From NCBI GenBank assembly GCA_002709075.1, contig PAPV01000014.1, positions 479 to 64,478 of the forward strand: DNA of 64,000 bases, written 5' to 3'. Of the stretch, positions 6,623 to 57,456 are shown piece by piece. Position numbers and translations under genes: made by a program. This DNA comes from Rhodospirillaceae bacterium (GTDB lineage: Bacteria > Pseudomonadota > Alphaproteobacteria > MPNO01 > UBA2964). The stretch's first letter is position 1. Each line of letters opens with the position of its first letter. The notes below the pieces were generated by a model. That model made no database searches, was not told the origin of the DNA, and saw only the letters and a program-made list of their open reading frames with translations.

Positions 6623-6634
6623 AGGCGAAAGCTA

Positions 6635-7033
6635 ATGATTATCGGGATCGGAAGTGACATAATTAATATAAATCGAATTGAAAGAGTTTTAGAACGTTAT
6701 GGAGATAGGTTCATTAAACGGATTTTTACGCCGGTAGAGAAAGAGAAGTCTGAACAGCGTATCAGTCGGGTTGAGAGTTACGCAAAGCGTTTTGCGGCTA
6801 AAGAGGCGTGTGCGAAAGCACTCGGAACTGGGTTCAGGAAAGGCATTTTTTGGCGAGACATGGGCGTAGTAAATCTTACAAGTGGGCAACCAACCATGCA
6901 ATTAACTGGAAATGCAGAAAAAAGATTGATTGAAATAACTCCTGATGGAGCGCAATCTAAAATTGACATAAGTTTGACCGATGAACCACCTTTCGCTCAG
7001 GCAGTCGTTGTTATTACAGCTGTGGCATCGTAA
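6635..7033 (+). CDS. acpS: holo-[acyl-carrier-protein] synthase
   Basis: [22 protein letters not shown] signatures, 132 aa. Confidence 0.9.
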
Positions 7034-26464: not shown

Positions 26465-26541
26465 TATTATTTATATAGGTTCATTATTTATCGAAAATAC
26501 TACACCATTTTTTATAGAATACACCCTTCCCACAGATCGTC

Positions 26542-26554
26542 TGTACACATACAA
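26542..26554 (+). promoter_or_regulatory. related box TGTACACATACAA upstream of UbiD-1
   Basis: 12/13 match to the kor/44739 box, same orientation relative to the gene, 39 nt upstream of ATG 26594. Confidence 0.4.
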
Positions 26555-36343: not shown

Positions 36344-37560
36344 ATGGACAGCGGATTTGAAAAAACACAAGACCTACCTAATCAGCAAATAACCACAGAT
36401 ACAGATACTCGAGATATTTTGAGACGGGAGGCAAAGTATCAAAAAATAAATGGTCTCTTTAAATGGCCGATCGTTGACATTGATGGCCACCATTCTGAAA
36501 TGACTTCATGGAAGGAAGTAATTGAATATATTGATGATCCGATCTTGCTACATCAAGCGCAAGAGTTTCAGTCGCGCACAGGCGGCGCGCCTGGATTATC
36601 CAATCATACTCCAGGTTTACGTTATCAAGATGTAGGCGGTCGAATTCCCCATCAACAACAACTTGGGGAAAGAATTAGAGACAAAACTGTTCATCGTGAT
36701 GTGACGCTTGTGCGGCGCAGCATGGATGCTCTGGGGCTAGATTATCAGGTTTTATTTCCGGGAAATTTATTGCAATTGGGTACGCACCCACAACCAAGGG
36801 TTGAAGCACAGCTTGCACTCGCCTATAACCGGTGGCTTTGCGATAACATACTTCCATTTGATAATAGAATAAAAACTCTGCTCTATCTTCCTCTGGGGGA
36901 ACCAGAAATGTGTCATCAAATTATTGATGAATTTTCTAATAGGGATGGGGTGGTAGGATTTATGGTTACCTCTGTGCGTTTCAAGCCAGTCCATCACAAC
37001 TCGTATATACCAATCTATCGGAAGTTAGAGGAACGAAAATTACCTTTAGCATTCCATGCAGGACTGAATTGGACAGATGAATGGACCAGGCAGACCGATT
37101 TATTCATTTCCATGCATGCCATTTCATTTGTTTTGTGTAACATCGTTCATATGACCAACTGGATTATCCACGGATTGCCGGAGCGTTTTCCAAATTTGAA
37201 AACTATATGGATTGAATCTGGGCTTGCTTGGCTTCCTTTCATGATGCAGCGTTTAGACTCAGAATATCAGATGAGACCTTCTGAAGCACCACTTCTCAAG
37301 AAACTTCCGTCGGACTATATACTCGATATGTATTTTTCGTCTCAACCTATTGAGACTTCAAATATTAAGCTTGCGGAGGCTACCTTTAATGCCATTAACG
37401 CTAGCACTCAATTAATGTATTGTCTGACTAGCCCCATTGGGATTTTAATCCGCCAAGCACCATTTATGAGCTTAAGTTTTTGAAAGAAATAGAGAAGCGG
37501 AATATACTAGGCGAAAATGCTTTGAGATTATTTAATCTTAAACGACCAATGGGAAAATAA
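36344..37560 (+). pseudogene. amidohydrolase-2 (ACMSD/LigW-type decarboxylase/hydrolase) family gene with disrupted 3' end
   Basis: Track ORF ends 37483 with an unrelated tail, but another frame (37432..37560) encodes the canonical family C-terminus PHWDF...ILGENALRLFNL; joining needs a 1-nt frameshift near 37405-37422 and read-through of TAG 37429-37431. Confidence 0.6.
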
Positions 37561-37584
37561 CCCGTGTGATGGAGACAAAAGATA

Positions 37585-37950
37585 ATGAATAAAATATTTG
37601 TTGGAGTGGAGAGTGATTTTGAAGATCGCGGGCGAAGGGTGATCGAATATAACGACCTTGAAATTGGTATATTTTTTGTGGGCGGTGATTTTTATGCCTA
37701 TGAAAATAACTGTGTCCATCAAGGCGGCCCTATTTGTCAAGGAAGAATACTTAATAGAGTGGTTGAGTTGTTGGCAGATGATAAAACAAGCCAGGGGCTA
37801 GCTTGGGATGAACACGATGTACATATCATTTGCCCGTGGCATGGGTATGAGTTCAATATAAGAACTGGAGTTCATCCTGGAAATAAGCACGCACGATTGC
37901 GCAGTTTCGATGTTAGTGTCGAGAAAGGTGAAGTTTATGTCCACATCTGA
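37585..37950 (+). CDS. small Rieske [2Fe-2S] domain protein (NirD-like)
   Basis: 121 aa; CVHQGGP and CPWHGYEF Rieske ligand boxes. Confidence 0.8.
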   Translation: MNKIFVGVESDFEDRGRRVIEYNDLEIGIFFVGGDFYAYENNCVHQGGPICQGRILNRVVELLADDKTSQGLAWDEHDVHIICPWHGYEFNIRTGVHPGNKHARLRSFDVSVEKGEVYVHI

Positions 37951-38233
37951 TACTGATATAGCGATTCAACACGCATTTGAGTTATCTATGAGAGCTTTAA
38001 AAAGAGACGGGGACCTCGACATATCAGATAAATCAGTTCAAATGCTGCTCACTATCGGTGCAAAAGCATTTTCTCGAAAATTTACCGATGAGGACAGGTT
38101 CTTTTCTCCGTTTGTTGAAGAGGAAATTGTTACCGCTACCGAGGCAATAGTTTCAATTTCTGAGTTTATGCACGCGGCAGATTTGAACACATTTGATTTA
38201 GGAATGTGGATGTCTCGTCCACGACCAAAATAA
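37937..38233 (+). CDS. hypothetical small acidic protein (98 aa)
   Basis: ATG 37937 preceded by AAAGGTG, overlaps Rieske gene by 14 nt; no family recognised. Confidence 0.4.
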   Translation: MSTSDTDIAIQHAFELSMRALKRDGDLDISDKSVQMLLTIGAKAFSRKFTDEDRFFSPFVEEEIVTATEAIVSISEFMHAADLNTFDLGMWMSRPRPK

Positions 38234-38332: not shown

Positions 38333-39553
38333 ATGGATGATGTACGTGTCGACGTCGACGGTCCTCGTGTTAAGAAATGGGCGAGCTTTAATTGGGAAGA
38401 CCCATTTCTGCTAGAAAATCAACTTTCTGAGGAAGAAAAACTGGTTCGTGATTCTGCTAGGGCATACGCAGATGAAAAGCTAATGCCTGGCATACAAAAA
38501 GCCAACCGGAATGAAACCTTCGATCCTAACATAATTAGAGAAATGGGAGCCTTAGGTTTTTTAGGTTCCACCTTGCCAGAAGAATATGGTTGTGCGGGAG
38601 CATCCTATGTAATTTATGGGTTAATTGCGCGAGAAGTTGAAAGGGTAGATAGTGCCTATCGGTCAACTTTGTCGGTGCAATCCAGTTTGGTCATGTGGCC
38701 AATTTATTCTTACGGCACCGAAATGCATAGAAAGAAATATCTTCCAAAGTTAGCTACTGGAGAGCTGATAGGCTGTTTTGGTTTGACCGAGCCGGATCAT
38801 GGATCAGATCCTAGCAGTATGATCACACGAGCGAAAAGTGTTGATGGAGGATTTTTAGTCAGTGGGTCTAAGATGTGGATAAGTAACGCACCAATTGCAG
38901 ATGTTTTTATTATCTGGGCTAAGGACGACGAGGGTGCTATCGGCGGATTTATTCTCGAAAAAGGTATGAAGGGCCTATCAGTGAATAAGGTTGAAGGAAA
39001 ATTTTCTTTACGGGCCTCGCTGACTGGCGAGGTGGTGATGGATGAGGTCTTCGTACCTGATGAAAATCGATTGCCGGGAGCTAATGGTTTAGGAGGCCCT
39101 TTTGGCTGCCTTAATAATGCGCGCTTTGGTATTGCATGGGGCGTGATGGGTGCTGCAGAGTTTTGCTGGCACTCAGCTCGAAATTACACCATGGAGCGCT
39201 CCCAGTTTGGTAGACCATTGGCCTCAAACCAGTTGGTTCAAAAAAAACTGGCTGACATCCAAACTGATATTACAATTGGTTTGCAATCATGTCTTCGCCT
39301 TGGTCGTATGATGGATGATGGAACTTGTTCTCCGGAGACGATTTCTTTGATGAAGCGCCACACTACTGGTAAAGCCCTTGAAATTGCGCGTGTTGCTCGA
39401 GACATGCACGGTGGCAACGGTATAGTTGATGAATACCATATTATTCGTCACGTAATGAATCTTGAGACAGTAATCACCTACGAAGGTACACACGATATAC
39501 ATGCTCTTATACTTGGTAGAGCTCAGACCGGCCTTCAGGCATTTTCTGGATAG
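38333..39553 (+). CDS. gcdH: glutaryl-CoA dehydrogenase
   Basis: 406 aa; [32 protein letters not shown] acyl-CoA dehydrogenase motifs with GCDH-type N-terminus. Confidence 0.8.
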
Positions 39554-39568
39554 TTAAGAAAATATTTT

Positions 39569-40792
39569 ATGTTTAGGCCGCTTTCGCATATTCGTGTTTT
39601 AGATATGAGTAGGATTCTTGCTGGACCATGGGCTGCGCAGACACTCGCTGATTTGGGGGCTGAAGTGATAAAAATTGAAAGGCCCGGTCCTGGGGATGAT
39701 ACTCGAAGCTGGGGACCACCGTTCGTAGCGAACAACACTGGTTCATCAAAAGAGTCTGCTTATTTCATGTCTGCTAATCGTGGAAAAAAATCTGTAGCGC
39801 TTGATATTTCGAAGCCACAAGGGCAAAAGATTTTGAAAAGTCTGGTTTCGAAAGCAGATATTCTAATTGAAAATTACAAGGTTGGTGGTCTCTCACGTTA
39901 TGGTTTAGGGTACGAGGACCTCAAAAAAGTGAATCCTGGTTTAATCTACTGTTCAATAACTGGATTTGGTCAGTCCGGTCCTCTTTCCAACCGGGCAGGC
40001 TATGATTTTTTAGTGCAAGCAATGGGTGGGTTAATGAGCGTGACTGGCGAAGCCGATGGGAAGGCCGGCGCCGGACCGCAAAAGATTGGTGTAGCTTTAA
40101 CGGATATTTTGACAGGGCTTTACACAGGAATTGCGGCCTTGTCCGCATTGTCAAATAGAGAAAAATCCAGCGAAGGTTGCCACATTGATATGGCACTTCT
40201 TGATGTCACCGCTGCTTGTATGGCTAATCAAGCAATGAATTTTTTAGTGACTGGAAAATCCCCAGTTCGTATGGGAAATGCACATCCAAATATTGTGCCA
40301 TATGAAGCATTTGCAACTGCTGACCAATATGTAATTATTGCGGTTGGAAATGACGCTCAGTTCAAACGATTTGCTTCTGTGGTTGACATGACGGAATTAT
40401 CTGAAGATCCAAAATTTAAAACAAATTCCGCGCGAGTTGAAAATAGGGATGAATTAATTCCGCTTATTCAAAAATCCTTAAAAAAACGCACTGCAGAAGA
40501 ATGGATTAACGCGTTTGAAGAGGTTGGAGTTCCTTGTGGTCCGATAAATAATATGGAACAGGTATTTGTCAACGAGCAGATGCAACATCGCGGTGTAAAG
40601 ATCGATATGGAGCATAAAACCCTAGGAAAGATACCGCAGGTGGCAAGCCCTATAAAGTTCGCGGGTAAGAACCTTGCTTATGAACGCGCCCCTCCCGCAC
40701 TTGGTCAGGACACGAAGGAGGTTCTTTTCGAAATCGCAGATATTTCCGATGCAGAGATGGCCGATCTTTTTGATAAAAAAATTATTGCCTGA
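39569..40792 (+). CDS. family III (CaiB/BaiF) CoA-transferase
   Basis: IRVLDMSRILAGPWAAQTLADLGAEVIKIE, GDDTRSWGPP, catalytic Asp region GYDFLVQAMGG. Confidence 0.85.
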   Translation: MFRPLSHIRVLDMSRILAGPWAAQTLADLGAEVIKIERPGPGDDTRSWGPPFVANNTGSSKESAYFMSANRGKKSVALDISKPQGQKILKSLVSKADILIENYKVGGLSRYGLGYEDLKKVNPGLIYCSITGFGQSGPLSNRAGYDFLVQAMGGLMSVTGEADGKAGAGPQKIGVALTDILTGLYTGIAALSALSNREKSSEGCHIDMALLDVTAACMANQAMNFLVTGKSPVRMGNAHPNIVPYEAFATADQYVIIAVGNDAQFKRFASVVDMTELSEDPKFKTNSARVENRDELIPLIQKSLKKRTAEEWINAFEEVGVPCGPINNMEQVFVNEQMQHRGVKIDMEHKTLGKIPQVASPIKFAGKNLAYERAPPALGQDTKEVLFEIADISDAEMADLFDKKIIA

Positions 40793-40848
40793 CTAAACCG
40801 CTACAAAAGATTTACATCACCGAAATTAGTCTAACTTTAAATGATAGT

Positions 40849-41337
40849 TTGGCACTTAAGAAAAAAGTAAATGTTATTAACTGCGAAGATAAGAAGTTGA
40901 GTGACTCCTCCAAAAATTCTAATAAATACATTTTGGAAAAACAAGTGGGACATTTACTTCGTCGTGCCCATCAGCGTCATACTTGGATTTTCCAGAAAAG
41001 AATTGGCGACAGGAGTTTGACACCGGTTCAATTCGCTGCTTTGGTGAAACTCAATGTTTTGGGGGAAGTGTCTCAAAATCAACTTGGCCGAAACACCGCT
41101 ATGGATGCATCGACAATGCAAGGTGTTATTAAACGTCTTGCATCACGTGGGTTAATAGAGAGAAAAGCTGACCCTAACGATCGTCGTAGATTACTTTTGA
41201 GTCTGAGTGAGGAGGGTAAAAAAGTTCTGGAATTGGCAATTCCGTCAGGCCGAATCATAACAAATTCTACTCTCTCGCCTCTTTCTGACGATGAGCAAAA
41301 AACACTTATAGCATTGTTAAAAAAAATCTCATATTAA
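40849..41337 (+). CDS. MarR family transcriptional regulator
   Basis: 162 aa; LTPVQFAALVKL, winged-helix RLASRGLIERKADPNDRR; TTG start (another in-frame TTG lies ~45 nt downstream). Confidence 0.8.
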   Translation: MALKKKVNVINCEDKKLSDSSKNSNKYILEKQVGHLLRRAHQRHTWIFQKRIGDRSLTPVQFAALVKLNVLGEVSQNQLGRNTAMDASTMQGVIKRLASRGLIERKADPNDRRRLLLSLSEEGKKVLELAIPSGRIITNSTLSPLSDDEQKTLIALLKKISY

Positions 41338-41592
41338 GTTTGTCTTCAGCGTTAATTTTAAAACCAAATATAGTTGTTTAGATATTCCATGTTTCAATCA
41401 TGTTATTTCTTATGGTTAAAAATATAAGCAAAATTAAAAATGACAATCGATGTTTTTGTTGTGAGGTAGTTTGAAAAAAAATTTAAACGAGCAACTATTA
41501 GGGAAGTAAATTTTTTCAATCATAAATATACTTAAACCGAAGAACTTAGTCGCATATGAAGGTTATTTGACCAATGTTTAAACTTTTTTCTA

Positions 41593-42618
41593 TTAGATAA
41601 TTGTCCAAGTTCTACCATTGTGCATAAGGTTAGTTACGGTCATTGGGGAAGTTTGTTTTGTTGCTTCCTGAATTTGCAGATGAACAGCTTCTTCATAGGT
41701 TTTGTTCGGATTAGCATATATTACACCCATTGCCACAGGCCATTTCGGCGCTTGCATTTTCGCTAGCATAGAAGCGAGGACGCGATTTGTTCTGTCGTGA
41801 ACTAAAATATCTGTTTTTTTAACACCCTTGGGTCCAATAGTTACTATTTCAAGCTCGAGTTTTTCTTTATTAAGACGAAGTCCCTTTTCAGCGTCCTTTC
41901 CAAAAATAAGTGGTTTTCCGTGTTCGCAGAAAATTTGACCATCACTGCTGTTATTTTTTTCTGTGAAGGAAGAAAACACACCATCATTATAAACAATACA
42001 ATTTTGTAAAATTTCAACTAATGCAGCACCTTTGTGAGCTTTCGCCTCTGCTAATATATTTGGCAGGAGTTTTTGATCGGTATCGACACCACGAGCAACA
42101 AAAGTTGCATTGCAACCCATAGCAAATTGACAAGCAGATACTGGTGAGTCAATAGATCCTGTCGGTGTAGATGGCGATTTGGTGCCAATATCAGAGGTTG
42201 GGGAATATTGTCCTTTAGTTAGGCCGTATATCGAATTGTTGAATAAAAGAATTTGTAGGTCAATATTTCGTCGCAGTGCATGCAAAGTATGGTTGCCGCC
42301 AATAGATAGCATATCTCCGTCTCCACCGATTACCCAGACGTCGAGGTCAGGATTGCTTAATTTCACACCAGTCGCTACCGCAGGTGCTCTTCCGTGGATT
42401 GTATGAAAACCATATGTCTCCATGTAATAAGGAAATCGCGCAGCGCAGCCGATGCCAGAGATAAAGACGGTTTTAGCAGGGTCAGCTCCGTTATCTGAAA
42501 GTGCGCGCTGAACTCCCTTTAGAATGGCATAATCGCCGCAACCTGGACACCAACGAACTTCTTGATCGGAAGCAAAATCATTCGGTTTGAGTTCTTTATG
42601 TGGACTTTCATTTTTCAC
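41593..42618 (-). CDS. korB: 2-oxoglutarate/2-oxoacid:ferredoxin oxidoreductase beta subunit (TPP-binding)
   Basis: WCPGCGDYAIL, GGDGD, IYGLTKGQ motifs; ATGA-type 4-nt overlap with korA. Confidence 0.85.
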   Translation of the reverse strand: MKNESPHKELKPNDFASDQEVRWCPGCGDYAILKGVQRALSDNGADPAKTVFISGIGCAARFPYYMETYGFHTIHGRAPAVATGVKLSNPDLDVWVIGGDGDMLSIGGNHTLHALRRNIDLQILLFNNSIYGLTKGQYSPTSDIGTKSPSTPTGSIDSPVSACQFAMGCNATFVARGVDTDQKLLPNILAEAKAHKGAALVEILQNCIVYNDGVFSSFTEKNNSSDGQIFCEHGKPLIFGKDAEKGLRLNKEKLELEIVTIGPKGVKKTDILVHDRTNRVLASMLAKMQAPKWPVAMGVIYANPNKTYEEAVHLQIQEATKQTSPMTVTNLMHNGRTWTII

Positions 42619-44489
42619 TTTAAATTCTCCAATCGAGTCCTAATTTGGGCTTCAAGATCTGCTACTTTAAAAGGTTTACCATTAATTTGTGTAAATGACT
42701 CTGCTGCGATTAAATATTCAGCTTTTAAAAGTTTTACAAGTTGTCCATTATTTATTTCAGGGACTAGAATTTTTTCAAAATTTGAAAGCAGTTTGAATAT
42801 ATTTTTCGGCATGGGCCATATATGCCGGATATGCAATTGTGATACTTGTAACCCATCAGAACGACAACGGCGAACAGCTTGTTCGATCGCACCAAACGTT
42901 GACCCCCAACCCACAACAAGTAATTTTCCGGACTCCGCACCATTTGCGATTTCTTGATCGGGTATGTCATTGCTTATATTATTGATTTTTGCCGCACGAA
43001 CTTTTGTCATCTTGTGATGATTATCAGCATCGTAAGAAATATTTCCAGAATCATAATCTTTTTCAATTCCGCCTATGCGGTGCTCTAAACCCGGGGTTCC
43101 GGGCACCACCCACGGACGAGCAAGTGTTTGTTCATTACGATTATAAGGCTGAAAATCTGTTTTTTCGGTGTGAAAACTTACCGGAAACTCTTTAATATTC
43201 TCAACGTCTGGAATGCGCCACGGCTCGGCCGCATTCGCAAGATATCCTTCGTTTAAAAACATTACAGGTGTCATGTATTTAGTGGCTAATCGAACCGCCT
43301 CGACTGCGCACTCAAAGCAGTCTGATGGTGTAGATGCAGAAATAACCGGCATTGGTGTATCGCCGTTTCGTCCCCAAACGGCTTGTAGTAGATCAGACTG
43401 CTCCGTCTTGGTAGGCATACCTGTGGATGGCCCTGCTCTTTGAAAATTTATTATAACAAGTGGGAGTTCTGTCGAAACCGCTAGTCCCATAGCTTCCGTC
43501 TTAAGTGCAATACCGGGCCCGGAACTTGATGTAATACCCAAGCATCCGGAGAAGGATGCTCCAATAGCTGCGCAAATCGCAGATATTTCATCCTCTGCCT
43601 GAAATGTAATTACTCCATGTTCGCGCAGATTGCTGAGTGAATGTAAAAGGGGAGAGGCAGGGGTTATAGGGTATGAACCAAAAAATAATTTTAAACCAGT
43701 TTTTTCGGCGCCGGCAAGCAGGCCCCATGTTGTTGTTTCTATTCCTGTTACGGCGCGATAAATTCCAGGTTTTTTTTCTGCTTTTGGAACAATAAAGGTG
43801 GCTAAATCAGCTGAAATTTCAGCCGTTTCTCCATAAGAATGGCCTGCATTTAGAGCTGCTACATTTGCTTTAGCAATATTAGGACGGTCAGAAAAACGCG
43901 ACTCAAGCCATTCTAAAGTAGACTGCCTCTCTCGACCATACATCCAACACATTAAACCTAGTGTCCAGATATTTTTACAGCGAAGAGCATCGCGTTTGCT
44001 AAGGCCGAGGCCTTCCACGGAAGCAAGAGTAAGTTTTGATATATCAATTTTTATAGAACGAAAAAACTCAAGTGTATTATCTTCCAAAGGGTCTGTATCG
44101 TAACCGGCTTTTTTAATATTTCGCGGATTAAATGTACCCGTATTAACAATTACTAATCCGCTTGATGCTAAATCTGAGAGATGCACTTTTAATGCTGCTG
44201 GGTTCATAGCAACCAAAACATCAGGCCTGTCACCTGGGGTTTTAATACTATGCGAGGCAAAGTTTATTTGAAATGCTGAAACACCAAAAGTTGTTCCGAC
44301 CGGGGCACGTATTTCTGCTGGAAAATCCGGAAAAGTTGAAAGGTCATTACCCATCAGTGCTGTTGATTGCGTGAATTGAGTTCCCGTTAACTGCATACCA
44401 TCGCCGGAATCACCCGCAAAACGTATCACTACAGAGTCTAGAATCTCTCTTCCTTTGAAATTCGTGTCCAATTTTGTTGCCATTTTCAT
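42615..44489 (-). CDS. korA: 2-oxoglutarate/2-oxoacid:ferredoxin oxidoreductase alpha subunit (fused gamma-alpha)
   Basis: 624 aa; FAGDSGDGMQLTG, FPAEIRAP N-terminal gamma-type domain then pyruvate:flavodoxin OR core domains. Confidence 0.85.
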   Translation of the reverse strand: MKMATKLDTNFKGREILDSVVIRFAGDSGDGMQLTGTQFTQSTALMGNDLSTFPDFPAEIRAPVGTTFGVSAFQINFASHSIKTPGDRPDVLVAMNPAALKVHLSDLASSGLVIVNTGTFNPRNIKKAGYDTDPLEDNTLEFFRSIKIDISKLTLASVEGLGLSKRDALRCKNIWTLGLMCWMYGRERQSTLEWLESRFSDRPNIAKANVAALNAGHSYGETAEISADLATFIVPKAEKKPGIYRAVTGIETTTWGLLAGAEKTGLKLFFGSYPITPASPLLHSLSNLREHGVITFQAEDEISAICAAIGASFSGCLGITSSSGPGIALKTEAMGLAVSTELPLVIINFQRAGPSTGMPTKTEQSDLLQAVWGRNGDTPMPVISASTPSDCFECAVEAVRLATKYMTPVMFLNEGYLANAAEPWRIPDVENIKEFPVSFHTEKTDFQPYNRNEQTLARPWVVPGTPGLEHRIGGIEKDYDSGNISYDADNHHKMTKVRAAKINNISNDIPDQEIANGAESGKLLVVGWGSTFGAIEQAVRRCRSDGLQVSQLHIRHIWPMPKNIFKLLSNFEKILVPEINNGQLVKLLKAEYLIAAESFTQINGKPFKVADLEAQIRTRLENLK

Positions 44490-44535
44490 CCCTTATCTCC
44501 GATCTTTTTTGTGAATGGTCTCACTGATCAGTAGA

Positions 44536-44558
44536 TTGTTTGTGTACATACAATTATT
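44536..44558 (-). promoter_or_regulatory. 23-bp promoter/operator block upstream of korA (minus-strand reading AATAATTGTATGTACACAAACAA)
   Basis: 22/23 identical to 44670..44692 read on the plus strand; box ends 46 nt upstream of korA ATG; AATAAT is a plausible -10. Confidence 0.6.
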
Positions 44559-44646
44559 CAAATTTCTGATTTTCAATCCAACCTGTCAAGTCTGCTTGGA
44601 ATCAATATTTAAAAAAATGATACATATGTGTTTTTACCTCCTTTGC

Positions 44647-44675
44647 TTGACAGTATTCGCTGCTGATTGAATATT
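44647..44675 (+). promoter_or_regulatory. sigma70-like promoter for the 44739..48320 operon
   Basis: TTGACA (44647-44652), 17-nt spacer, AATATT (44670-44675). Confidence 0.5.
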
Positions 44676-44713
44676 TGTATGTACACAAACAAAAATTATA
44701 TGTACACAAACAA
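44670..44713 (+). promoter_or_regulatory. two direct TGTACACAAACAA boxes (44680-44692, 44701-44713), 21-bp phasing, putative operator
   Basis: Exact 13-mer repeated twice right after the putative -10 and 25 nt upstream of ATG 44739. Confidence 0.6.
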
Positions 44714-44738
44714 ATTGTACCGGGAATTTGGAGGCACC

Positions 44739-46226
44739 ATGGCGCAAATGAGAGAAAATAAAGATGATGGTTTGATACGATGCGATGCTTGTCCAGTGTT
44801 GTGCAGAATTCGTCCTGAAAAGACCGGTGCCTGCAATCGATACGGAAATTTTGAGGGCAAACTTACAAGAGTGGATCCAGTAGTAGTTGTACAAAAAGCG
44901 CTGGATGAAGATTGTGAACTTGTTCCATTTGCGAGAGCATCGGAGGAGTGGGACGGATCTCTGATAAGTCAAGCACCAACATTTTTGACTGGCATTGGAT
45001 CTACTACAACTTATCCTGACTATAAGCCTGCTCCTTTTATTGTGTCGAGCGATCAAGATGGTGTTGATATGGTTACTGTCGTCAGTGAGGGAGTTTTTTC
45101 ATATTGTGGTGTTAAGGTTAAAATCGATACTGATGCTTACATCGGTCCAGAGCCTGCTCCAATTAGAGTAAAAGGCGAGCAGGTTGGTCATGTAACCACC
45201 GCTGAATATGGCAGTCAAATGTTGGCAATTGGCGGTGTACGGCACTTGACCGGAGGAAGTAAAAAAGAAGGTATGGTGACCTGTAACACTATGATGCGAC
45301 TTTGCAATAAAGAACCAGTTGAAATGACTATTGATGGTGGTGCGAATATAATAGTTCAGGGAGGAGAGCCTCCAATTATTAATGGGTTTAAAGAAGAACG
45401 TATGCGGGTAGGGTGTGGCTCAGCAACAGTTGGAATATTTGCACCTCAATGGAAAGACCATGTGGATGAGGTAATAGTCGTAGATGATCATATTACGGCA
45501 GTTTTATCCGAGCATCAGGCGGGACAATTTCTTGATATGCCTCTAGCTGGAATCAGAGTAAGAGGACGTCGTTCTACGCTTGGTCGTTATTTTCAAGTTG
45601 CAGATCATGGGGCAGGTTGGGGAGGAACCGATGTTGAAGATCCATTAGATATAATAGAGAAGATTGATGAAGATATTGCTTGGCCAGGCCTACGATTGTT
45701 GATGGTATCCACAACTGGTCAGGATTCTGCTTGGTATGTTTTAGATGATAATCTCGCACCTCAACCGACTAAAATGCCCCAGGAGGTAAAACTAGTTGTT
45801 GATCGTATTGGTGAAAATTGCGAGCCAGCGTTGTGTACTGTGATGTTCATGGCAGGCGCAGGTGGCTCTTTAAGGGCTGGTGTAACTATTAATCCTGTGC
45901 ACTTAACCCGAAGTGTTCGTGCTTCAGAGACACAAGTAACATGCGGCGGAGCACCTGTATTTGTGTGGCCGGGTGGTGGTATTACTCTTTTGGTGGATGT
46001 GAACCAAATGCCAGATAATTCCTTCGGGTGGGTTCCCACGCCTGCATTAGTTGCTCCCATAGAGTTCACCGTGCGTCGTGATCTTTATGAACGAATTGGA
46101 GGTTATTCTGATAAGGTAAAAAATATTCATGATGTTATTTCTGAACTAGGAAATATTCGATCTGTTCCATGGCGGGAAAATCACCCATGGCCGCCAGAGG
46201 GCATGGCTCGCAAAGATAAGGTGTAA
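44739..46226 (+). CDS. Cys-rich protein of the family commonly auto-annotated as 6-hydroxynicotinate reductase
   Basis: 495 aa from ATG 44739 (GGAGG 4 nt upstream); N-terminal CDACPVLCRIRPEKTGAC cluster motif; family assignment is from memory and unverified. Confidence 0.55.
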   Translation: MAQMRENKDDGLIRCDACPVLCRIRPEKTGACNRYGNFEGKLTRVDPVVVVQKALDEDCELVPFARASEEWDGSLISQAPTFLTGIGSTTTYPDYKPAPFIVSSDQDGVDMVTVVSEGVFSYCGVKVKIDTDAYIGPEPAPIRVKGEQVGHVTTAEYGSQMLAIGGVRHLTGGSKKEGMVTCNTMMRLCNKEPVEMTIDGGANIIVQGGEPPIINGFKEERMRVGCGSATVGIFAPQWKDHVDEVIVVDDHITAVLSEHQAGQFLDMPLAGIRVRGRRSTLGRYFQVADHGAGWGGTDVEDPLDIIEKIDEDIAWPGLRLLMVSTTGQDSAWYVLDDNLAPQPTKMPQEVKLVVDRIGENCEPALCTVMFMAGAGGSLRAGVTINPVHLTRSVRASETQVTCGGAPVFVWPGGGITLLVDVNQMPDNSFGWVPTPALVAPIEFTVRRDLYERIGGYSDKVKNIHDVISELGNIRSVPWRENHPWPPEGMARKDKV

Positions 46227-46231
46227 GAAAA

Positions 46232-47101
46232 ATGTTTGATGGTGCTCAAGTATGCATGCTTCCTGATGGCAAGCGGCTTCATTTGTGCGAAGGACCCATT
46301 GATATCATTCTTGAGGCTTTTGGTCCTCCGAGCGAAATAACTGCAGCCTATAAACGTGCAGAGGTTTGTTTCCTTGATATTCTCTCTACACTAGTTGGTG
46401 AGTTATCTGATTTACGAAAACAGATAGGTGACCCAGAATGCTATCCCGTTGGTCCCGTTGCTAGAAGAATGTTTAACGCTTGTTGGCCTCATCGCAAATG
46501 TTTTGTAACTCCTATGGCAGCTGTAGCAGGTTCTGTGGCAGATGAAGTTTTGACATCATTATCTGCTTCAAAATGTCTTTCAAAAGCATATATCAATAAT
46601 GGGGGTGATATTGCATTTTACTTGGCGAAAGGGGAAAGTTTAACCGCCGGGATTGTAGGTGATTATCATCTTCCCCAGATTAACGCTACGTGTGCTTTTA
46701 CTTCGGATTCGCCTGTCCGTGGGATCGCAACTAGTGGTTGGAAGGGGCGTTCTTTTTCGTTGGGAATCGCGGATACCGTTTCTGTGCTTGCGGAAAATGC
46801 TGCGAAAGCAGATGTGGCAGCTACATTGATAGCTAATGCTGTTGATGTTGATCATCCATCGGTATCTCGTGTTTGTGCTCGTGAATTGGACCCCGATAGT
46901 GATTTAGAGAATCGTGCAGTGACGACAGGGGTAGGAAAACTTGAACCAGAGGTGGTAGAGGAGGCACTTAATCAGGGAGTAAAAACAGCAAAAATTATGC
47001 TTGCATCTGGACTAATTCACGCAGCAGTGTTGATATTAAACAATAAATATAAAATGGTCGGTGATATGCCGGCTGGTTTGTTGGCGGGAGAAAAACAATG
47101 A
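46232..47101 (+). CDS. UPF0280 family protein (ApbE superfamily fold)
   Basis: 289 aa; NNGGDI, GIATSG, ADVAATLIANAV resemble ApbE-fold signatures; 5 nt after upstream stop. Confidence 0.55.
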   Translation: MFDGAQVCMLPDGKRLHLCEGPIDIILEAFGPPSEITAAYKRAEVCFLDILSTLVGELSDLRKQIGDPECYPVGPVARRMFNACWPHRKCFVTPMAAVAGSVADEVLTSLSASKCLSKAYINNGGDIAFYLAKGESLTAGIVGDYHLPQINATCAFTSDSPVRGIATSGWKGRSFSLGIADTVSVLAENAAKADVAATLIANAVDVDHPSVSRVCARELDPDSDLENRAVTTGVGKLEPEVVEEALNQGVKTAKIMLASGLIHAAVLILNNKYKMVGDMPAGLLAGEKQ

Positions 47102-47733
47102 AAAATGTACGGAATATCAAAGATATACAAGTGCCACCTGCTGGTGATTTTGGAGAATTAGTAAAAATTCGCAAATATGTTTTGCATACAGAAGAAGTAC
47201 TACATGAGTTTGGACCGCCCGCTAACCCTCCGCAGTTGCGAGGCTTCATTGCGGCGGTAGCGGCTAATCCTTATGCTGGCGAGTATATTGAAGATCTTAT
47301 ACCTCTGATGGAAGCACTTAAACCATTGGGTTTGCTGATGGCAAAGCGGCTAGCGGACAGTCTTGGTGGAGCGGACAAGATTGTTGCCTATGGAAAATCG
47401 GCGCTGGTAGGTGAAGATGGAGAGCTTGAACATGCAGCACTGTGGCATGAACCAGGAGGCTACGGCATGCGTGAACTGATTAAACCATCAAAAGCCATTG
47501 TGCCATCTACAAAAAAGGTTGCGGGGCCGGGTCGGCCTTTAGATGTCCCTCTTGCTCATGTGAACGCAGCATATGTGCGTAGCCATTTTGATTGTGTAGA
47601 ATGTTGTATCGCTGATGCACCACGTCGTGACGAGGTTGTTTGGGTCCAGGCGATGGCAACTGGTCCTCGAATTTATGATCGGTCTGGTGGTCTATCGGCG
47701 GATGAAATAAAAGGAGAGGATGGATTACGCTAA
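47098..47733 (+). CDS. 'amino acid synthesis' family protein (PF06684/DUF1185), paralog 1
   Basis: 211 aa; YGKSALVGEDGELEHAA, DVPLAHVNAAYVRSHFD, DAPRRDE; ATGA overlap with upstream gene. Confidence 0.7.
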   Translation: MKNVRNIKDIQVPPAGDFGELVKIRKYVLHTEEVLHEFGPPANPPQLRGFIAAVAANPYAGEYIEDLIPLMEALKPLGLLMAKRLADSLGGADKIVAYGKSALVGEDGELEHAALWHEPGGYGMRELIKPSKAIVPSTKKVAGPGRPLDVPLAHVNAAYVRSHFDCVECCIADAPRRDEVVWVQAMATGPRIYDRSGGLSADEIKGEDGLR

Positions 47734-47735
47734 TA

Positions 47736-48320
47736 ATGAGGGTATCTCCTCGTAAAACTCATGTTTCCTGTGAGACCACTTATGTTGATGGAGGGAAAAA
47801 AGCAGAAATTCCCTCACGAAAGGCCGTTGCAATTGCTGTAATTGAAAACCCTTTTGCTAATAAATTTCATAAAAGACTTACTCAACTCGAAAATATTGGT
47901 GAATGGCTTGGGAAATACTTAGGGGAGTTGGCGGTAAATGCAATGAATGCGGCACCAAGTGAAATAGAGAGTTTTGGCAAGGCTGCTATTGTTGGAGAGA
48001 ATGGTGAGTTGGAGCATGCTGCTGCCATTTTGCACCCAAAATTGGGGCAACCTCTCCGTGAGGTGATGGGTGGTGGTCGAGCCCTTGTGCCTTCTGCAAA
48101 AAAATTGGGTGGACCTGGAATTCGTATCGATGTACCACTTGGTCATAAGAACGCAGCCTACGTTCGCAGCCATTTTGACTCAATTGAAGCTGGTTTGCCA
48201 GATGCGCCGCGCGCAAATGAAATTCTCGTGTGCGTAGCAGTGGCGGACTTCGGCAGACCTCATGCCCGGGTTGGCGGATTGAAAAAAGAGGATGTGGTTG
48301 GAAAAGACGGCTTAAAATGA
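47736..48320 (+). CDS. 'amino acid synthesis' family protein (PF06684/DUF1185), paralog 2
   Basis: 194 aa; FGKAAIVGENGELEHAAAILHPKLG, DVPLGHKNAAYVRSHFD, DAPRANE; 2 nt after upstream stop. Confidence 0.75.
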   Translation: MRVSPRKTHVSCETTYVDGGKKAEIPSRKAVAIAVIENPFANKFHKRLTQLENIGEWLGKYLGELAVNAMNAAPSEIESFGKAAIVGENGELEHAAAILHPKLGQPLREVMGGGRALVPSAKKLGGPGIRIDVPLGHKNAAYVRSHFDSIEAGLPDAPRANEILVCVAVADFGRPHARVGGLKKEDVVGKDGLK

Positions 48321-48954
48321 GTTTTTTGTAAATTAACCTGTTCATGTTTTTCTGCTAAAGTAAAAAAATTCAACGTTGAATACAAAAAATCTCTCACGTG
48401 AGTAAAATGCTATTATTGGATTGATAAATTCTTTCCGTGAATGATATGTCATGAGGCCGTTTATCCGACACAACTTAATTCAGTGTGTTATTTAAAAAAG
48501 GTCAATCTATGGTTCAAATGCGCATCGTTTCTTCGTCTGATTTCATTTTTGTATTCCAAGAAAAATTTCGATATTACGTTGATATTCAACGATGAGAGTA
48601 TTGATGTGTTTGCTTCTCTACCCAAAGAGAGTTATTAACAGAACTCCAACAGCGTCATATTGGTTTTAGTGTTTGCCGTGAGATAACTAAGACTCTGGTG
48701 TGTGACCGTCACCATATAAGCAGTGGGTGTGGTGCCTGGAACAGAAACCTCAAAAACATCATATTTGGTTCTTTGATTGAGATGGGCATTTCAAAAAAGT
48801 TTAGTTTAAACATCATTGAAGCCACGGATTTGATACCATCGGAGCTACTTTTTTACAAAAACAATTTCTGCATCATTTTATAACGTCAACTCAAATTATA
48901 AGTTCGACAACTTATTCCACAATATTTAAATGCAAAATACAATATTTTAGATGT

Positions 48955-51291
48955 TTAGTTTTTTGCAGCTTGGATGGCTTCCCAGACGCGAGCTGGAGTA
49001 GCGGGTGCGTCAAGCTTTGTAACACCAACAGGGGCCAGTGCGTGCAGTATAGCGCACATTGATGCTGCCATAGATCCACCATTTCCCGCTTCCCCACAAC
49101 CTTTTACTCCTAAAGGGTTGGTGGTAGAGGGTACGTTGCGAGTTGAAAACGCTATATTGCAAAGATCATCGGCTCGAGGCATGCAGTAGTCCATGTAAGA
49201 CCCAGTAACAAGTTGTCCATTTTCATCATAGACAGTATTCTCAAGCAAAACTTGCCCAATACCTTGCATTATTCCTCCTTGTACTTGGCCCTCGACAACC
49301 AGAGGGTTAATTACTAACCCGAAGTCATCTACAACAGTATACCGGACAATTTCTGTAACTCCGGTTTCGGGATCAATTTCTACCTCACATATGTGACAAC
49401 CATTTGGGAATGATGAAGGACTGGTATCGTGAACTGCTTTGTCGTCTAGTGTGTCTGGAACATCTTTTGGCAAATTAATTTCAGATTGTAATCTTTTTGA
49501 TAGCTCTATTATACCGATTGATCGATCTGTTCCGGCTACAATAAAGTCACCTGCGGCAAATTCAATATCCTCTGCTGCAGCCTCAAGAAAATGTGCGGCA
49601 GCAATTTTTCCTTTTTCTGCAATCTTTGTGGCGCAGTCATTAATGGCATTTCCTGCCCCCAAAAGTGTTTTGGAGCCCCCAGATCCGCTGGCGCCCTTAC
49701 TCATAAGTTCTGAGTCATTTTGGATAACACGTATTTTTTCATATGGAACGCCCAGTTTGTCAGACAAAATCTGCGCAAAGGGGGTGCGATGACTTGTTCC
49801 CATGTCTTTTGCTCCAGTAATCAGTGCTACCGTGCCATCATCATGAAATCGAACATCACAAAGCTCTCCAGCGGCGCCCGTGTTTTCAAGATAAGGGGTT
49901 AGAGCAATACCGCATAATTTTCCACGTTGAGCAGCTTTTGCTCTTCGCTCTTCAAAACCAGCCCAATCCGCTTGTTTTAAACATTCATCCATCAACGCTT
50001 CAAATTCACCAGAATCATACTCTTGCCCGTTAGGAGTTTTCCAAGGGAATGACCCAGCTGGGATTAGATTTTTTCTTCGGATTTCAACCCTATCAAAGCC
50101 CATTTCGCTGGCTGCTTTATCAATTAGTTGCTCCAAAATATATTTGGATTCTGGACGCCCTGCACCGCGGTATGGTCCCGTAGGAACCGTGTTTGAAAAC
50201 ACGGCTTTTGTTCCGTAGGCAAAAGCGGGCGTTTTATACACACTGACCAAATTTCGGGAGATTACACCAGTGACTGGACCAGGACCCATAGCGGTTGAAT
50301 AAGCCCCCAAATTCCCAACACCCCCGCATCTGAGCGCCAAAAAATTTCCATCTTTATCCAAAGCCAATTCTGCACTTATAAGACTGTCACGACCCTGTTG
50401 GTCTGAGAGAAAACTCTCGGTCCTACTGGCTGTCCATTTTACTGTTCGGTTCAGCTTCCGGGAAGCATACATAACAGCGATAGGCTCTGCTAGACACGCA
50501 CCTTTCATGCCAAAAGAACCGCCCACATCATTGGAAAGAATACGAATTTTTTCATCTTTCATTTTGAAAATTGCTTTAGCTAACTGCGATCTCATTCCAA
50601 CGACACCTTGCGTTGGCAGAGTTACAGTGAATTTGTCCAAGTGCGAGTCGTATTCGGCTATAACAGCTCGTGGTTCCATTGCATTTACCACCATACGGGT
50701 AGATAAAACACGAATACTGCTTACATGGTCGGCTTCCTCAAATGCCTGGTCGCAGGCTTTCTGATCTCCAGTAAAATAGTCAAGGCAAATGTTATTTTCT
50801 GCTTCGTCCCATAGTTGAACAGCACCATCTTGAAGCGCATCCCACGCCTCAACAGTTACTTTTTCTGGCAGAATATCTACTGCTACTAATTCAGCTGCTT
50901 CTTCTGCAAGCGCTGCAGTTTCTGCAATAACAACTGCTATTATTTCACCAACGTGTCGAACCCGACCTTCAGCCATCCCACAACGAGGAGGTACAAAGTA
51001 GGGGGATCCGTCCCGATTTTTGATTGGCATGTTTGATGGAATGTCTCCCACGCTATCGGCTCGCAAATCCTCCGCAGTATAAATTGCCAACACACCAGGC
51101 ATTTCCAAAGCTGTACATATCTTTATTGATTTAATTATCCCGTGGGCAACCTGACTGCGAACAAAACGCGCATAGAGTTGCCCGTCCGCGGAATAATCAT
51201 CCGTGTATTCCCCGCCACCAGTCAGAAGTCGAGGATCCTCTGATCGATAAACAGGTTGCCCAATACCAAAATTTAGCGGTATCCTACTCAT
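48955..51291 (-). CDS. xanthine dehydrogenase/aldehyde oxidase family molybdopterin-binding large subunit (CoxL-like, non-CO-dehydrogenase type)
   Basis: 778 aa; GQPVYRSEDPRLLTG N-terminus, GSFGMKG, GPYRGAGRPE active-site loop; 8-nt overlap with hyuB. Confidence 0.85.
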   Translation of the reverse strand: MSRIPLNFGIGQPVYRSEDPRLLTGGGEYTDDYSADGQLYARFVRSQVAHGIIKSIKICTALEMPGVLAIYTAEDLRADSVGDIPSNMPIKNRDGSPYFVPPRCGMAEGRVRHVGEIIAVVIAETAALAEEAAELVAVDILPEKVTVEAWDALQDGAVQLWDEAENNICLDYFTGDQKACDQAFEEADHVSSIRVLSTRMVVNAMEPRAVIAEYDSHLDKFTVTLPTQGVVGMRSQLAKAIFKMKDEKIRILSNDVGGSFGMKGACLAEPIAVMYASRKLNRTVKWTASRTESFLSDQQGRDSLISAELALDKDGNFLALRCGGVGNLGAYSTAMGPGPVTGVISRNLVSVYKTPAFAYGTKAVFSNTVPTGPYRGAGRPESKYILEQLIDKAASEMGFDRVEIRRKNLIPAGSFPWKTPNGQEYDSGEFEALMDECLKQADWAGFEERRAKAAQRGKLCGIALTPYLENTGAAGELCDVRFHDDGTVALITGAKDMGTSHRTPFAQILSDKLGVPYEKIRVIQNDSELMSKGASGSGGSKTLLGAGNAINDCATKIAEKGKIAAAHFLEAAAEDIEFAAGDFIVAGTDRSIGIIELSKRLQSEINLPKDVPDTLDDKAVHDTSPSSFPNGCHICEVEIDPETGVTEIVRYTVVDDFGLVINPLVVEGQVQGGIMQGIGQVLLENTVYDENGQLVTGSYMDYCMPRADDLCNIAFSTRNVPSTTNPLGVKGCGEAGNGGSMAASMCAILHALAPVGVTKLDAPATPARVWEAIQAAKN

Positions 51292-55925: not shown

Positions 55926-56654
55926 TCATTTTGTTTTCAATTTGTTATGGTGGGTTTTTTTACCCCCATTATGTAGTTTCGAAATAATATCATCAGTAAG
56001 CATTACGTCGGCAAAATGAGTATACATAGAGTTTATTGAGGCTTCATGTGCTTTTGGGTTGGATGCAGCGCAAGAATCCTCTGCGACAAGCACATCATAA
56101 TTTAACATCATCGCATCTCTTACTGTTGACTCAACACAGACATTTGTGACAATTCCGCAAATGATTAAGAGCTCAATCCCGTGTTCCCCTAGAACCTTCT
56201 CAATATTGGAAGACCCTTTAGCGAAAGCAGAAAACCGTGATTTATTTATTTTTCGATCACTGCTTCGAATATCTAAATGATCAAACAATTTGAAACCTAA
56301 GCCATCCTTTGAAAGTTCAGTTCTGCGGTAGTTCAAACGTTCTTGTGTTAGATGTCCATAGAAAGCAGACCAATCTTTTACATCCTTATTAGTAAAAATA
56401 TTGCGAAGCCAAATTACTGGAGCGCCAATGTTCCGAAATGTTCCTGCAAGCCGGTTAATATTAGGCACAATTTCCAAAGCAAACGGGCAGAAATTTGTTG
56501 ACCCATCGAGTAAATAAAAGTTTTGCATATCCACAATAACAAGCGCTGTTTCAGTCGGTTTTATTTCGGTTAGACGACCTGACAGACCAAATTGTTTTTG
56601 GTTTCTCTGGATGCTTTCTTGCCAAAGCACGCTCTGATTGACAGGGCTTTTCAA
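55926..56654 (-). CDS. isochorismatase-like cysteine hydrolase
   Basis: TALVIVDMQNFY, SRFSAF, GIVTNVCVESTVRDA (catalytic Cys) motifs. Confidence 0.8.
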   Translation of the reverse strand: MKSPVNQSVLWQESIQRNQKQFGLSGRLTEIKPTETALVIVDMQNFYLLDGSTNFCPFALEIVPNINRLAGTFRNIGAPVIWLRNIFTNKDVKDWSAFYGHLTQERLNYRRTELSKDGLGFKLFDHLDIRSSDRKINKSRFSAFAKGSSNIEKVLGEHGIELLIICGIVTNVCVESTVRDAMMLNYDVLVAEDSCAASNPKAHEASINSMYTHFADVMLTDDIISKLHNGGKKTHHNKLKTK

Positions 56655-56697
56655 AAAATAGCTCCCAAAATTTTTACAAACAAGTATTAATCAACGT

Positions 56698-57399: not shown

Positions 57400-57456
57400 T
57401 CATTCCTCCATCATTAATTTTCTTTTAACATTAAGCGGCAGATTAGTCATTACATG

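Follow-up and report, generated by a model that had tools for sequence, protein, structure and literature searches.

A divergently encoded 2-oxoacid:ferredoxin oxidoreductase is the probable electron donor of a 6-hydroxynicotinate reductase-type cluster in a marine alphaproteobacterium

INTRODUCTION

How does an aerobic bacterium obtain the very low-potential electrons that are needed to reduce the ring of vitamin B3? This question is raised by a gene cluster in a 64,000-nt stretch of DNA from a Rhodospirillaceae bacterium (GenBank assembly GCA_002709075.1, contig PAPV01000014.1, positions 479 to 64,478; hereafter the window, which always means the whole stretch). In this cluster, korA and korB, the genes of a 2-oxoacid:ferredoxin oxidoreductase (KorAB), are transcribed divergently from an operon whose first gene, hnr, encodes a protein of the 6-hydroxynicotinate reductase (Hnr) family. 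The reductive nicotinate route, which passes through 6-oxo-1,4,5,6-tetrahydronicotinate (THON), needs electrons at ferredoxin potential and has been known in aerobic Proteobacteria for decades, and the 6-hydroxynicotinate reductase of Eubacterium barkeri (EC 1.3.7.1) is ferredoxin-dependent. The window and its relatives suggest how such electrons may be obtained, as the hnr operon is partnered with a ferredoxin reducer that may, according to lineage, be KorAB alone, KorAB together with an adrenodoxin-reductase-like protein, or a ferredoxin-NADP reductase. We propose that KorAB has been drawn into the regulon of a nicotinate/6-hydroxynicotinate cluster of the THON type known from Azorhizobium and Eubacterium and supplies the electrons for Hnr, and we assign this mechanism as a whole a probability of about 0.68.

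Neither the pathway, the enzyme families, nor the supply of electrons by KorAB for ring reduction is new in itself. The THON/glutarate route operates in the aerobe Azorhizobium caulinodans, and a Bradyrhizobiaceae homologue that is 42% identical to the E. barkeri reductase belongs to a nicotinate cluster common to Azorhizobium, Bradyrhizobium, and Rhodopseudomonas (PMC3511419). The KorAB of Thauera aromatica feeds benzoyl-CoA reductase (Doerner & Boll 2002, as cited in PMC9973337), a precedent to which an initial annotation of the window had rightly appealed, and in the benzoate clusters of Rhodopseudomonas palustris, KorAB and AadN replace each other between strains (PMC9973337). No paper in the literature searched names the electron source of the THON route in aerobic Proteobacteria. 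What appears to be new relative to that literature is that the proteobacterial Hnr module is systematically paired with ferredoxin-reducing enzymes that can replace one another, together with the loss of the built-in ferredoxin domain and the shared operator.

RESULTS

The korAB genes and the divergent hnr operon

The initial annotation placed korA and korB on the minus strand, overlapping by 4 nt and diverging from the operon that starts at 44739 across a 249-bp spacer (44490-44738), and all of these coordinates hold. The genes of the two divergent units are as follows.

41593 to 42618, minus strand: korB, 341 aa, GTG start; beta subunit of a two-subunit 2-oxoacid:ferredoxin oxidoreductase (thiamine pyrophosphate [TPP], single [4Fe-4S] cluster)
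42615 to 44489, minus strand: korA, 624 aa; alpha subunit with a fused gamma domain
44739 to 46226, plus strand: hnr, 495 aa; Hnr-family protein (NCBI name 6-hydroxynicotinate reductase) with an N-terminal Cx2Cx3Cx9C motif
46232 to 47101, plus strand: UPF0280/ApbE-like protein (NF003322, 355 bits against a cut-off of 290)
47098 to 47733, plus strand: AA_synth (DUF1185) protein 1 (PF06684, 3.9e-64)
47736 to 48320, plus strand: AA_synth (DUF1185) protein 2 (PF06684, 7.6e-65)

Within the overlap between the two kor genes (GTGA), the korB start codon and the korA stop codon have bases in common. In Pfam scans, KorA displayed POR_N (1e-52), POR (2.8e-25), and PFOR_II (2.1e-08) domains and KorB a TPP_enzyme_C domain, with no Fer4 (delta, 2x[4Fe-4S]) domain in either subunit, and the NCBIfam subfamily model TIGR03710 matched KorA with 633.5 bits, which passes its cut-off of 482.75. 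Among solved structures, the closest were both chains of the 2-oxoglutarate:ferredoxin oxidoreductase from Magnetococcus marinus, namely 6N2N_A for KorA (1e-70) and 6N2N_B for KorB (5e-56); KorB was also strongly similar to 5B48_B. Specifically, C24, C27, C58, and C207 of KorB align with cysteines of 6N2N_B, meaning that all four [4Fe-4S] cluster cysteines are conserved, and the GDG-type TPP/Mg motif (GGDGD) is kept. Judged by these domains and structural matches, the korAB product is a two-subunit TPP- and [4Fe-4S]-dependent 2-oxoacid:ferredoxin oxidoreductase, and its substrate is most likely 2-oxoglutarate. The M. marinus enzyme (6N2N/6N2O) has the alpha-beta layout, the single [4Fe-4S] cluster, and the TPP motif in common with the window KorAB, whereas it serves the reductive tricarboxylic acid (TCA) cycle and has a beta chain of 292 aa, relative to which the 341-aa KorB bears a C-terminal extension of ~50 residues.

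The most likely start of hnr is the ATG at 44739, which is preceded by GGAGG 7 nt upstream and lies at a position equivalent to the starts of homologues. Hnr matched proteins that are named 6-hydroxynicotinate reductase in NCBI records with 57-87% identity over 93-100% of the length, and the search returned at least 8000 scored homologues, the best 120 of which were 68-100% identical. This is a large and very conserved family with no Pfam model or recognizable fold: the window protein had no Pfam or NCBIfam match, a profile search against PDB sequences was empty at E <= 10, and a Foldseek search of the PDB gave nothing at E <= 0.001, with an AlphaFold2 model that was only moderate (30-sequence alignment, pLDDT 64.9, pTM 0.57, N-terminal 120 residues poor). 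Four cysteines of Hnr (C15, C18, C22, and C32) were invariant in 18 sequences, down to 30% identity, and this Cys4 motif is a probable iron-sulfur site that the catalytic core retains everywhere. A canonical ApbE flavinylation motif in Hnr was also considered and rejected because the threonine of GCGSAT is not conserved in distant members.

Linkage of korAB to hnr across genomes

Co-localization of korAB with the hnr module in other genomes had been set beforehand as a test of the proposed donor role, and it was widely found. A one-genome-per-species scan revealed Hnr relatives in 495 species, from which we took the best 80 loci (L001-L080; Hnr 66-86% identical, nearly all from alphaproteobacterial metagenome-assembled genomes) with 10-kb flanks and analyzed them by tblastn with the window proteins. 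KorA was located no more than 10 kb upstream of hnr in 51 of the 80 loci and KorB in 48; among the 64 loci having at least 8 kb of upstream sequence, KorA was near hnr in 46. Three architectures were observed: (i) the arrangement of the window, with korBA and hnr directly divergent (18 loci); (ii) korBA divergent, with genes for a CoxM-like protein and a fused small-large Mo-hydroxylase inserted before hnr (26 loci); and (iii) korA-korB ahead of the hydroxylase and hnr and co-directional with them (7 loci). The linkage outlasts all three architectures, with KorA in the linked loci down to 59-80% identity, and the identities of KorA and Hnr to the window proteins co-vary over the loci (r = 0.89). 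Independent marine assemblies, among them a TARA Oceans scaffold, show the same gene order as the window.

Most korAB loci (37 of 51) contain an additional gene after korB that encodes a ~440-aa adrenodoxin-reductase/FprA-like protein (Pyr_redox_2; GSGPGG...GGVAPDH). It is present in every directly divergent locus that reaches far enough, and the loci concerned fall within the ranges L001-L018 (gene at ~5300-6700), L020-L053, and L056-L072.

The partners of hnr within its own operon, the ApbE-like and DUF1185 genes, are conserved as well. The UPF0280 gene was found in 73 of the 80 loci, and PF27030 (AbpE_bact) is a precomputed Pfam match both of its orthologues and of a 289-aa product at the identical position in a second assembly (L094). 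The literature search yielded nothing usable on UPF0280; a role as a flavin transferase or maturation factor for Hnr is possible. The gene for AA_synth protein 1, whose product matches the PDB entries 3BYQ and 2QTP (both deposited as uncharacterized), was found in 52 of the 80 loci. In 52 of the 80 loci, and in Roseobacter, Rhizobiaceae, and Comamonadaceae clusters as well, the ApbE-like gene is followed by two AA_synth/DUF1185 genes in tandem; the co-directional loci and Pleomorphomonas have one such gene at most.

Electron-input modules associated with Hnr

Outside this clade, the hnr-UPF0280-AA_synth-AA_synth module was found in Sulfitobacter, Sagittula, Neorhizobium, a Comamonadaceae plasmid, and Variovorax. 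In all five of these loci, which belong to three other orders, the cluster contains a ferredoxin-NADP reductase gene and korAB is absent. In Sagittula, the Comamonadaceae plasmid, and Variovorax, this gene is the immediate upstream neighbor of hnr; in Sulfitobacter (with hydroxylase genes between) and in Neorhizobium, it is a few kilobases off. The 80 close loci gave no match to the ferredoxin-NADP reductase, and a Pleomorphomonas plasmid has neither this gene nor korAB within 14 kb. Since a ferredoxin-NADP reductase performs no carbon chemistry, its replacement of korAB in equivalent clusters argues that the slot provides electrons.

Electron-input modules also occur as fusions to the Hnr domain. 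In an exhaustive search of 50%-identity cluster representatives, 1209 clusters matched at E <= 0.001, of which 272 did so at E <= 1e-30; the observations on distant members concern proteins P0365-P0449, P0366, and P0373. Distant full-length Hnr proteins of ~510 aa that are 36-44% identical to the window protein (P0365, P0369, and P0418) carry an N-terminal 2x[4Fe-4S] dicluster (Fer4) domain, which is missing from the window Hnr and from other proteobacterial Hnr proteins. In two proteins of ~970 aa, Fer4, Fer4_20, and Pyr_redox_2 domains (a GltD-like NAD(P)H flavoprotein module) are fused to the Hnr domain. Across the family, the electron-input module of Hnr may be fused, encoded next door, or exchanged.

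The initial annotation had seen no ferredoxin gene in the window, and this holds for the classical 4Fe-4S type: a six-frame CxxCxxCxxxC regular-expression scan of the window gave only spurious out-of-frame matches, and Pfam scans of its annotated open reading frames (ORFs) gave no ferredoxin domain. The window does contain a Rieske-type ferredoxin-like gene (37585-37950). A regular-expression scan of 85 loci also gave no ferredoxin ORF, with only spurious out-of-frame matches. The carrier is therefore a ferredoxin encoded elsewhere, or none is used. The annotation had offered a carrier encoded elsewhere or one built into the Cys-rich protein; Hnr has the Cys4 site but no complete ferredoxin of its own.

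Putative operators at both divergent promoters

The spacer between korA and the plus-strand operon contains mirrored control elements, as the initial annotation had indicated. They comprise a 26-nt inverted repeat (arms 44536-44561 and 44667-44692, 96% complementary) and three copies, each with at most one mismatch, of the near-palindromic 18-mer TTGTATGTACACAAACAA, for which shuffles gave a chance expectation of 0.12 matches with up to three mismatches per whole 64-kb window. A 21-nt tandem repeat occupies 44670-44690 and 44691-44711. The putative control elements, scored with a position weight matrix (PWM), and the candidate regulator are listed below.

44536 to 44553, minus strand: operator copy O1 (minus-strand reading TTGTATGTACACAAACAA), 47 bp ahead of korA, with AATAAT before it; PWM 31.1 bits
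44647 to 44675, plus strand: sigma-70-like promoter of the hnr operon (TTGACA-17-AATATT, consensus match), abutting O2
44675 to 44713, plus strand: tandem operator copies O2 (44675-44692) and O3 (44696-44713), straight after the -10 element; 31.1 and 29.6 bits
55107 to 55124, minus strand: operator-like site TTATATGTACACGAATGA, 24 bp ahead of hydA; PWM 22.4 bits, weaker than the spacer copies
26537 to 26554: operator-like site TCGTCTGTACACATACAA, ~40 bp upstream of a UbiD-like gene (26594-28159); PWM 23.0 bits
40849 to 41337, plus strand: MarR-family (NicR-like) regulator (Pfam MarR/MarR_2), convergent with korB

The sigma-70-like promoter pattern was found once, against 1.6 sites expected in shuffles. 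In most related loci, the spacer between korA and either hnr or coxM contains the operator as well, and relatives also have its perfect palindrome form, TTGTTTGTATACAAACAA. Operator-like sites were additionally found before the MarR gene (L003-L005, L009, L010, L012, and L016), before hydA (L002 and L006), and, in other loci, before the enamidase gene. The MarR gene itself occupies the equivalent position in the directly divergent loci, with 62-74% identity. In L091, where an IS66 element parts korA from the cluster, the operator is kept 49 bp upstream of korA and another copy lies beside coxM. Among the loci with a ferredoxin-NADP reductase, Sagittula has an operator-like site between coxM and the reductase gene; the Sulfitobacter, Comamonadaceae, and Variovorax loci yielded no operator site. 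Shared MarR-type operator control is predicted mainly for the KorAB-bearing clade and Sagittula. The MarR-family protein encoded at 40849-41337 is the probable repressor binding the 18-bp operator, and korAB and the hnr operon are probably under this common repressor. A search of Rfam gave no RNA element in 40700-49000 at E <= 1.

Catabolic genes on either side of the divergent units

The following genes flank korAB and the hnr operon.

38333 to 39553, plus strand: acyl-CoA dehydrogenase (Pfam); glutaryl-CoA dehydrogenase Acd is the second-best NCBIfam match (226 bits against a cut-off of 470)
39569 to 40792, plus strand: family III CoA-transferase; best NCBIfam match succinate--glutarate CoA-transferase (511 bits against a cut-off of 750)
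48955 to 51291, minus strand: Mo-hydroxylase large subunit, CoxL-like, 778 aa; last gene of the hydA-hydB operon
51284 to 53041, minus strand: hydB (Pfam Hydantoinase_B)
53038 to 55083, minus strand: hydA (Pfam Hydantoinase_A)

The genes for the acyl-CoA dehydrogenase and the CoA-transferase keep their synteny in relatives and constitute the probable glutarate branch of the pathway. The best NCBIfam matches of HydAB were caprolactamase subunits, below cut-off. Among the 55 loci with at least 8 kb of downstream sequence, hydAB was present in 16 and an enamidase-like gene in 20, and no locus had both. HydAB is a probable ATP-dependent lactamase of the hydantoinase/oxoprolinase type that would stand in for the enamidase in THON ring opening. 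The best NCBIfam match of the CoxL-type subunit was glyceraldehyde dehydrogenase alpha, also below cut-off; 13 of the 18 directly divergent loci have an orthologue with >50% identity. In several relatives, this orthologue is inverted between the two AA_synth genes.

Many related loci encode a CoxM-like protein, the fused Mo-hydroxylase, NicA/NicB, or an enamidase-like protein, and none of these queries had a match in the window. Annotation of gene-like ORFs of at least 110 aa likewise gave no small (2Fe-2S) or medium (FAD) Mo-hydroxylase subunit in the 64 kb. Steps 1 and 3 of the classical pathway would either be encoded elsewhere, be performed by the orphan CoxL-type subunit and HydAB, or be unneeded if the substrate differs.

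DISCUSSION

Three independent lines converge on electron donation by KorAB: its displacement by a ferredoxin-NADP reductase, the shared operator, and the domain fusions. The gene identities, the repeats, the synteny statistics, this displacement, and the fusions were observed directly, and from them we infer that the repressor binds, that the genes are co-expressed, which path the electrons take, which substrates KorAB and Hnr use, and what the UPF0280 and AA_synth proteins do. In the mechanism that we favor, the MarR-family (NicR-like) repressor would act on the 18-bp site at both divergent promoters and before hydA, and korAB, the hnr-UPF0280-AA_synth-AA_synth operon, and the hydAB-Mo-hydroxylase operon would be switched on jointly. 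KorAB would then convert a 2-oxoacid and CoA to acyl-CoA and CO2, and its low-potential electrons would reach Hnr via a ferredoxin encoded elsewhere or directly at the N-terminal Cys4 site. With 6-hydroxynicotinate or a close analogue as its substrate, Hnr would reduce the pyridone ring to yield THON, the lactam would be opened by the ATP-dependent HydAB and not by an enamidase, and carbon would exit via glutarate, the CoA-transferase, and the acyl-CoA dehydrogenase.

Several points weigh against this reading, the case for which is wholly computational. The substrate specificity of KorAB is only predicted, and the NCBIfam model TIGR02177 matched KorB with 255.2 bits, slightly below its cut-off of 261.9, over positions 2-192 of 286 only. 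The window has no adrenodoxin-reductase-like gene, as the gap between korB and the MarR gene (41338-41592) is 255 bp long and AT-rich. This gap is not an assembly artefact because it occurs in independent assemblies, including a TARA Oceans scaffold, and the donor unit in the window is therefore a trimmed version whose sufficiency is only presumed. Within 10 kb of hnr, 29 of the 80 loci have neither korAB nor the ferredoxin-NADP reductase; 11 of these 29 have <8 kb of upstream sequence. The sample of loci is phylogenetically narrow, and part of the synteny may be plain inheritance. The enamidase-like gene typical of nicotinate clusters is missing from the window, and the CoxM plus fused Mo-hydroxylase pair is missing both from the window and from all 18 directly divergent loci, such that the true substrate could differ.

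The copies of korAB found by searching from KorA bear on the same side. This search gave at least 8000 candidates (the best 120 being 66-100% identical), and we inspected the neighborhoods of six KorA homologues on long contigs along with that of the window's own KorA. In two of the six (P0264 and L091), korAB was linked to hnr. Three others (L089, L090, and L092) had no hnr within 9 kb of korAB and no operator near korA, and in L093 the nearest cluster genes were hydroxylase genes ~7 kb from korAB, again with no operator near korA. In L089 and L090, the unlinked KorA nonetheless falls among its linked orthologues (81-89% identity with those of architecture ii), and the L090 protein is 99.7% identical to that of L093. 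KorAB therefore has no intrinsic tie to the pathway but is a ferredoxin-reducing unit that has become bound to it in many lineages, including that of the window, and not in every genome. The initial annotation had called KorAB the dedicated donor of the adjacent module. Linkage, displacement, the operator, and the fusions support the donor role, and "dedicated" proved too strong as a general term, applying to only some lineages in view of the unlinked orthologues in three genomes. In L093 (6490-8454) and L090 (1462-3426), a gene for a 654-aa multi-Fer4 protein is divergent from korA and has as neighbors DUF6494, DUF6505, a lipoate-ligase-like gene, and an Fe-S assembly gene of the Mrp/ParA type; its product may be another electron-transfer partner of this KorAB lineage. 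In L093, the multi-Fer4 gene and Fe-S assembly genes occupy the interval that separates korA from the hydroxylase genes.

Of the alternatives, the one that survives best overlaps with our mechanism, as it keeps the donor logic and assigns Hnr another substrate, a different pyridone or N-heterocyclic carboxylate. In place of the CoxM plus fused Mo-hydroxylase pair, the window and the 18 directly divergent loci have the orphan CoxL-type subunit and HydAB, and the 64 kb contain no small or medium Mo-hydroxylase subunit. Nearby genes for three UbiD-type decarboxylases, a CoA ligase, a Rieske protein, and an Amidohydro_2 protein, with an operator-like site before one of the UbiD genes, also fit this alternative. 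We nevertheless consider a different substrate unlikely, since Hnr is 66-86% identical to orthologues that stand beside CoxM, the fused Mo-hydroxylase, and the enamidase, and since canonical clusters share with the window its glutarate-branch and isochorismatase-family genes and its MarR/operator system.

Somewhat less probable still is that KorAB is a general-purpose enzyme of central metabolism (part of a TCA-cycle variant or a general ferredoxin reducer) and that its adjacency to hnr is an inherited accident of the clade. Such an accident would account for the unlinked, operator-less orthologues in L089, L090, and L092 and for the 29 of 80 hnr loci without korAB nearby, and it fits both the fairly narrow clade from which the loci were sampled and the sheer number of KorA homologues (at least 8000 candidates). 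It does not explain why the linkage outlasts three architectures while KorA falls to 59-80% identity, or why the operator stands at the korA promoter in the window and its relatives, even after the IS66 split. In other lineages, moreover, the same slot is filled by a different ferredoxin-reducing enzyme, and the fusion proteins show the Hnr domain recruiting electron-input modules. A purely carbon-catabolic KorAB, which would oxidatively decarboxylate a 2-oxoacid of the pathway (e.g., 2-oxoglutarate, or 2-oxoadipate from the opened ring) with reduced ferredoxin as a by-product, is very improbable: the KorAB substrate is only predicted, the cluster ends in dicarboxylate/CoA chemistry (CoA-transferase and acyl-CoA dehydrogenase), and succinyl-CoA from KorAB could conceivably be the CoA donor for the CoA-transferase, but the published THON route via 2-formylglutarate and glutarate has no 2-oxoacid intermediate (PMC3511419), no glutarate hydroxylase or 2-hydroxyglutarate oxidase was recognized among the annotated genes of the window, and a ferredoxin-NADP reductase, which handles no carbon, replaces korAB in equivalent clusters.

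The electron-donor reading can be taken further, though we regard the following extension as doubtful. In aerobic marine Alphaproteobacteria, Hnr may have lost its built-in ferredoxin domain and, with the ApbE-like and DUF1185 proteins, may take electrons directly from the co-regulated KorAB. This would amount to a ferredoxin-free, 2-oxoglutarate-driven dearomatization of a pyridone, possibly on a substrate other than 6-hydroxynicotinate, with KorAB, KorAB plus the adrenodoxin-reductase-like protein, and the ferredoxin-NADP reductase as donors interchangeable between lineages.

Among characterized systems, KorAB-fed ring reduction in T. aromatica is a close parallel. As cited in PMC9973337, it too involves a two-subunit 2-oxoglutarate:ferredoxin oxidoreductase that is encoded with a catabolic cluster and serves aromatic-ring reduction. 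In the window, korAB lies inside the cluster, and its position and the shared operator support co-regulation, with operator binding predicted from sequence. The exchange of KorAB and AadN between R. palustris strains likewise resembles that of KorAB and the ferredoxin-NADP reductase in the hnr loci. The acceptor differs, being an Hnr-family pyridone reductase in the window and an ATP-dependent benzoyl-CoA reductase in T. aromatica. Unlike the T. aromatica system, the window cluster has no dedicated ferredoxin gene, its relatives mostly adding an adrenodoxin-reductase-like gene, and its host is an apparently aerobic marine alphaproteobacterium.

Compared with the E. barkeri reductase, the window Hnr belongs to the same protein family (~42% identity for proteobacterial homologues) and is predicted to catalyze the same step from 6-hydroxynicotinate to THON. 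It differs in lacking the N-terminal 2x[4Fe-4S] domain of distant members, among which the Firmicutes type may be counted. The E. barkeri pathway runs through an enamidase and a 2-methyleneglutarate mutase, whereas in the window HydAB probably takes the place of the former and the predicted downstream route is of the glutarate/CoA type. The proteobacterial THON clusters (A. caulinodans, Bradyrhizobium, R. palustris HaA2, and strain SG-6C; PMC3511419) have a MarR-type regulator, a transporter, and the glutarate end in common with the window. That description does not mention korAB, and the window cluster for its part lacks the nicotinate dehydrogenase and enamidase genes; plasmid-borne relatives of the window cluster have a ferredoxin-NADP reductase instead of korAB. 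Beyond the electron source, these loci display an apparent swap of an enamidase for an ATP-dependent lactamase, and as the host is marine, the cluster would bear on vitamin B3 turnover in the sea if the assignment is true.

Other features of the window

The first 13 kb of the window contain housekeeping genes, and the locus is therefore chromosomal. Ahead of the acyl-CoA dehydrogenase gene, the region 36344-38233 holds genes for an Amidohydro_2 protein, the Rieske-type protein, and an overlapping ORF of ~100 aa without a family match. These genes are syntenic with the cluster in L001, L007, L009, L013, L014, and L018 as well as in independent assemblies.

37585 to 37950: Rieske-type ferredoxin-like protein, 121 aa

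Further upstream, at 25.9-34.5 kb, three UbiD paralogues are grouped with genes for an AMP-ligase, a short-chain dehydrogenase/reductase (SDR), a glyoxalase-family protein, and a cupin protein. The operator-like site near one of the UbiD-like genes hints that part of this neighboring region may belong to the same regulon.

On the other side of the cluster, the region 55926-58194 contains two tandem isochorismatase-family hydrolase genes and an SDR gene, and a similar set is located downstream of the cluster in ~20 related loci. The best models for the two hydrolases were RutB-like hydrolases, with weak similarity to nicotinamidase, and these enzymes could convert nicotinamide or another amide into the substrate of the pathway.

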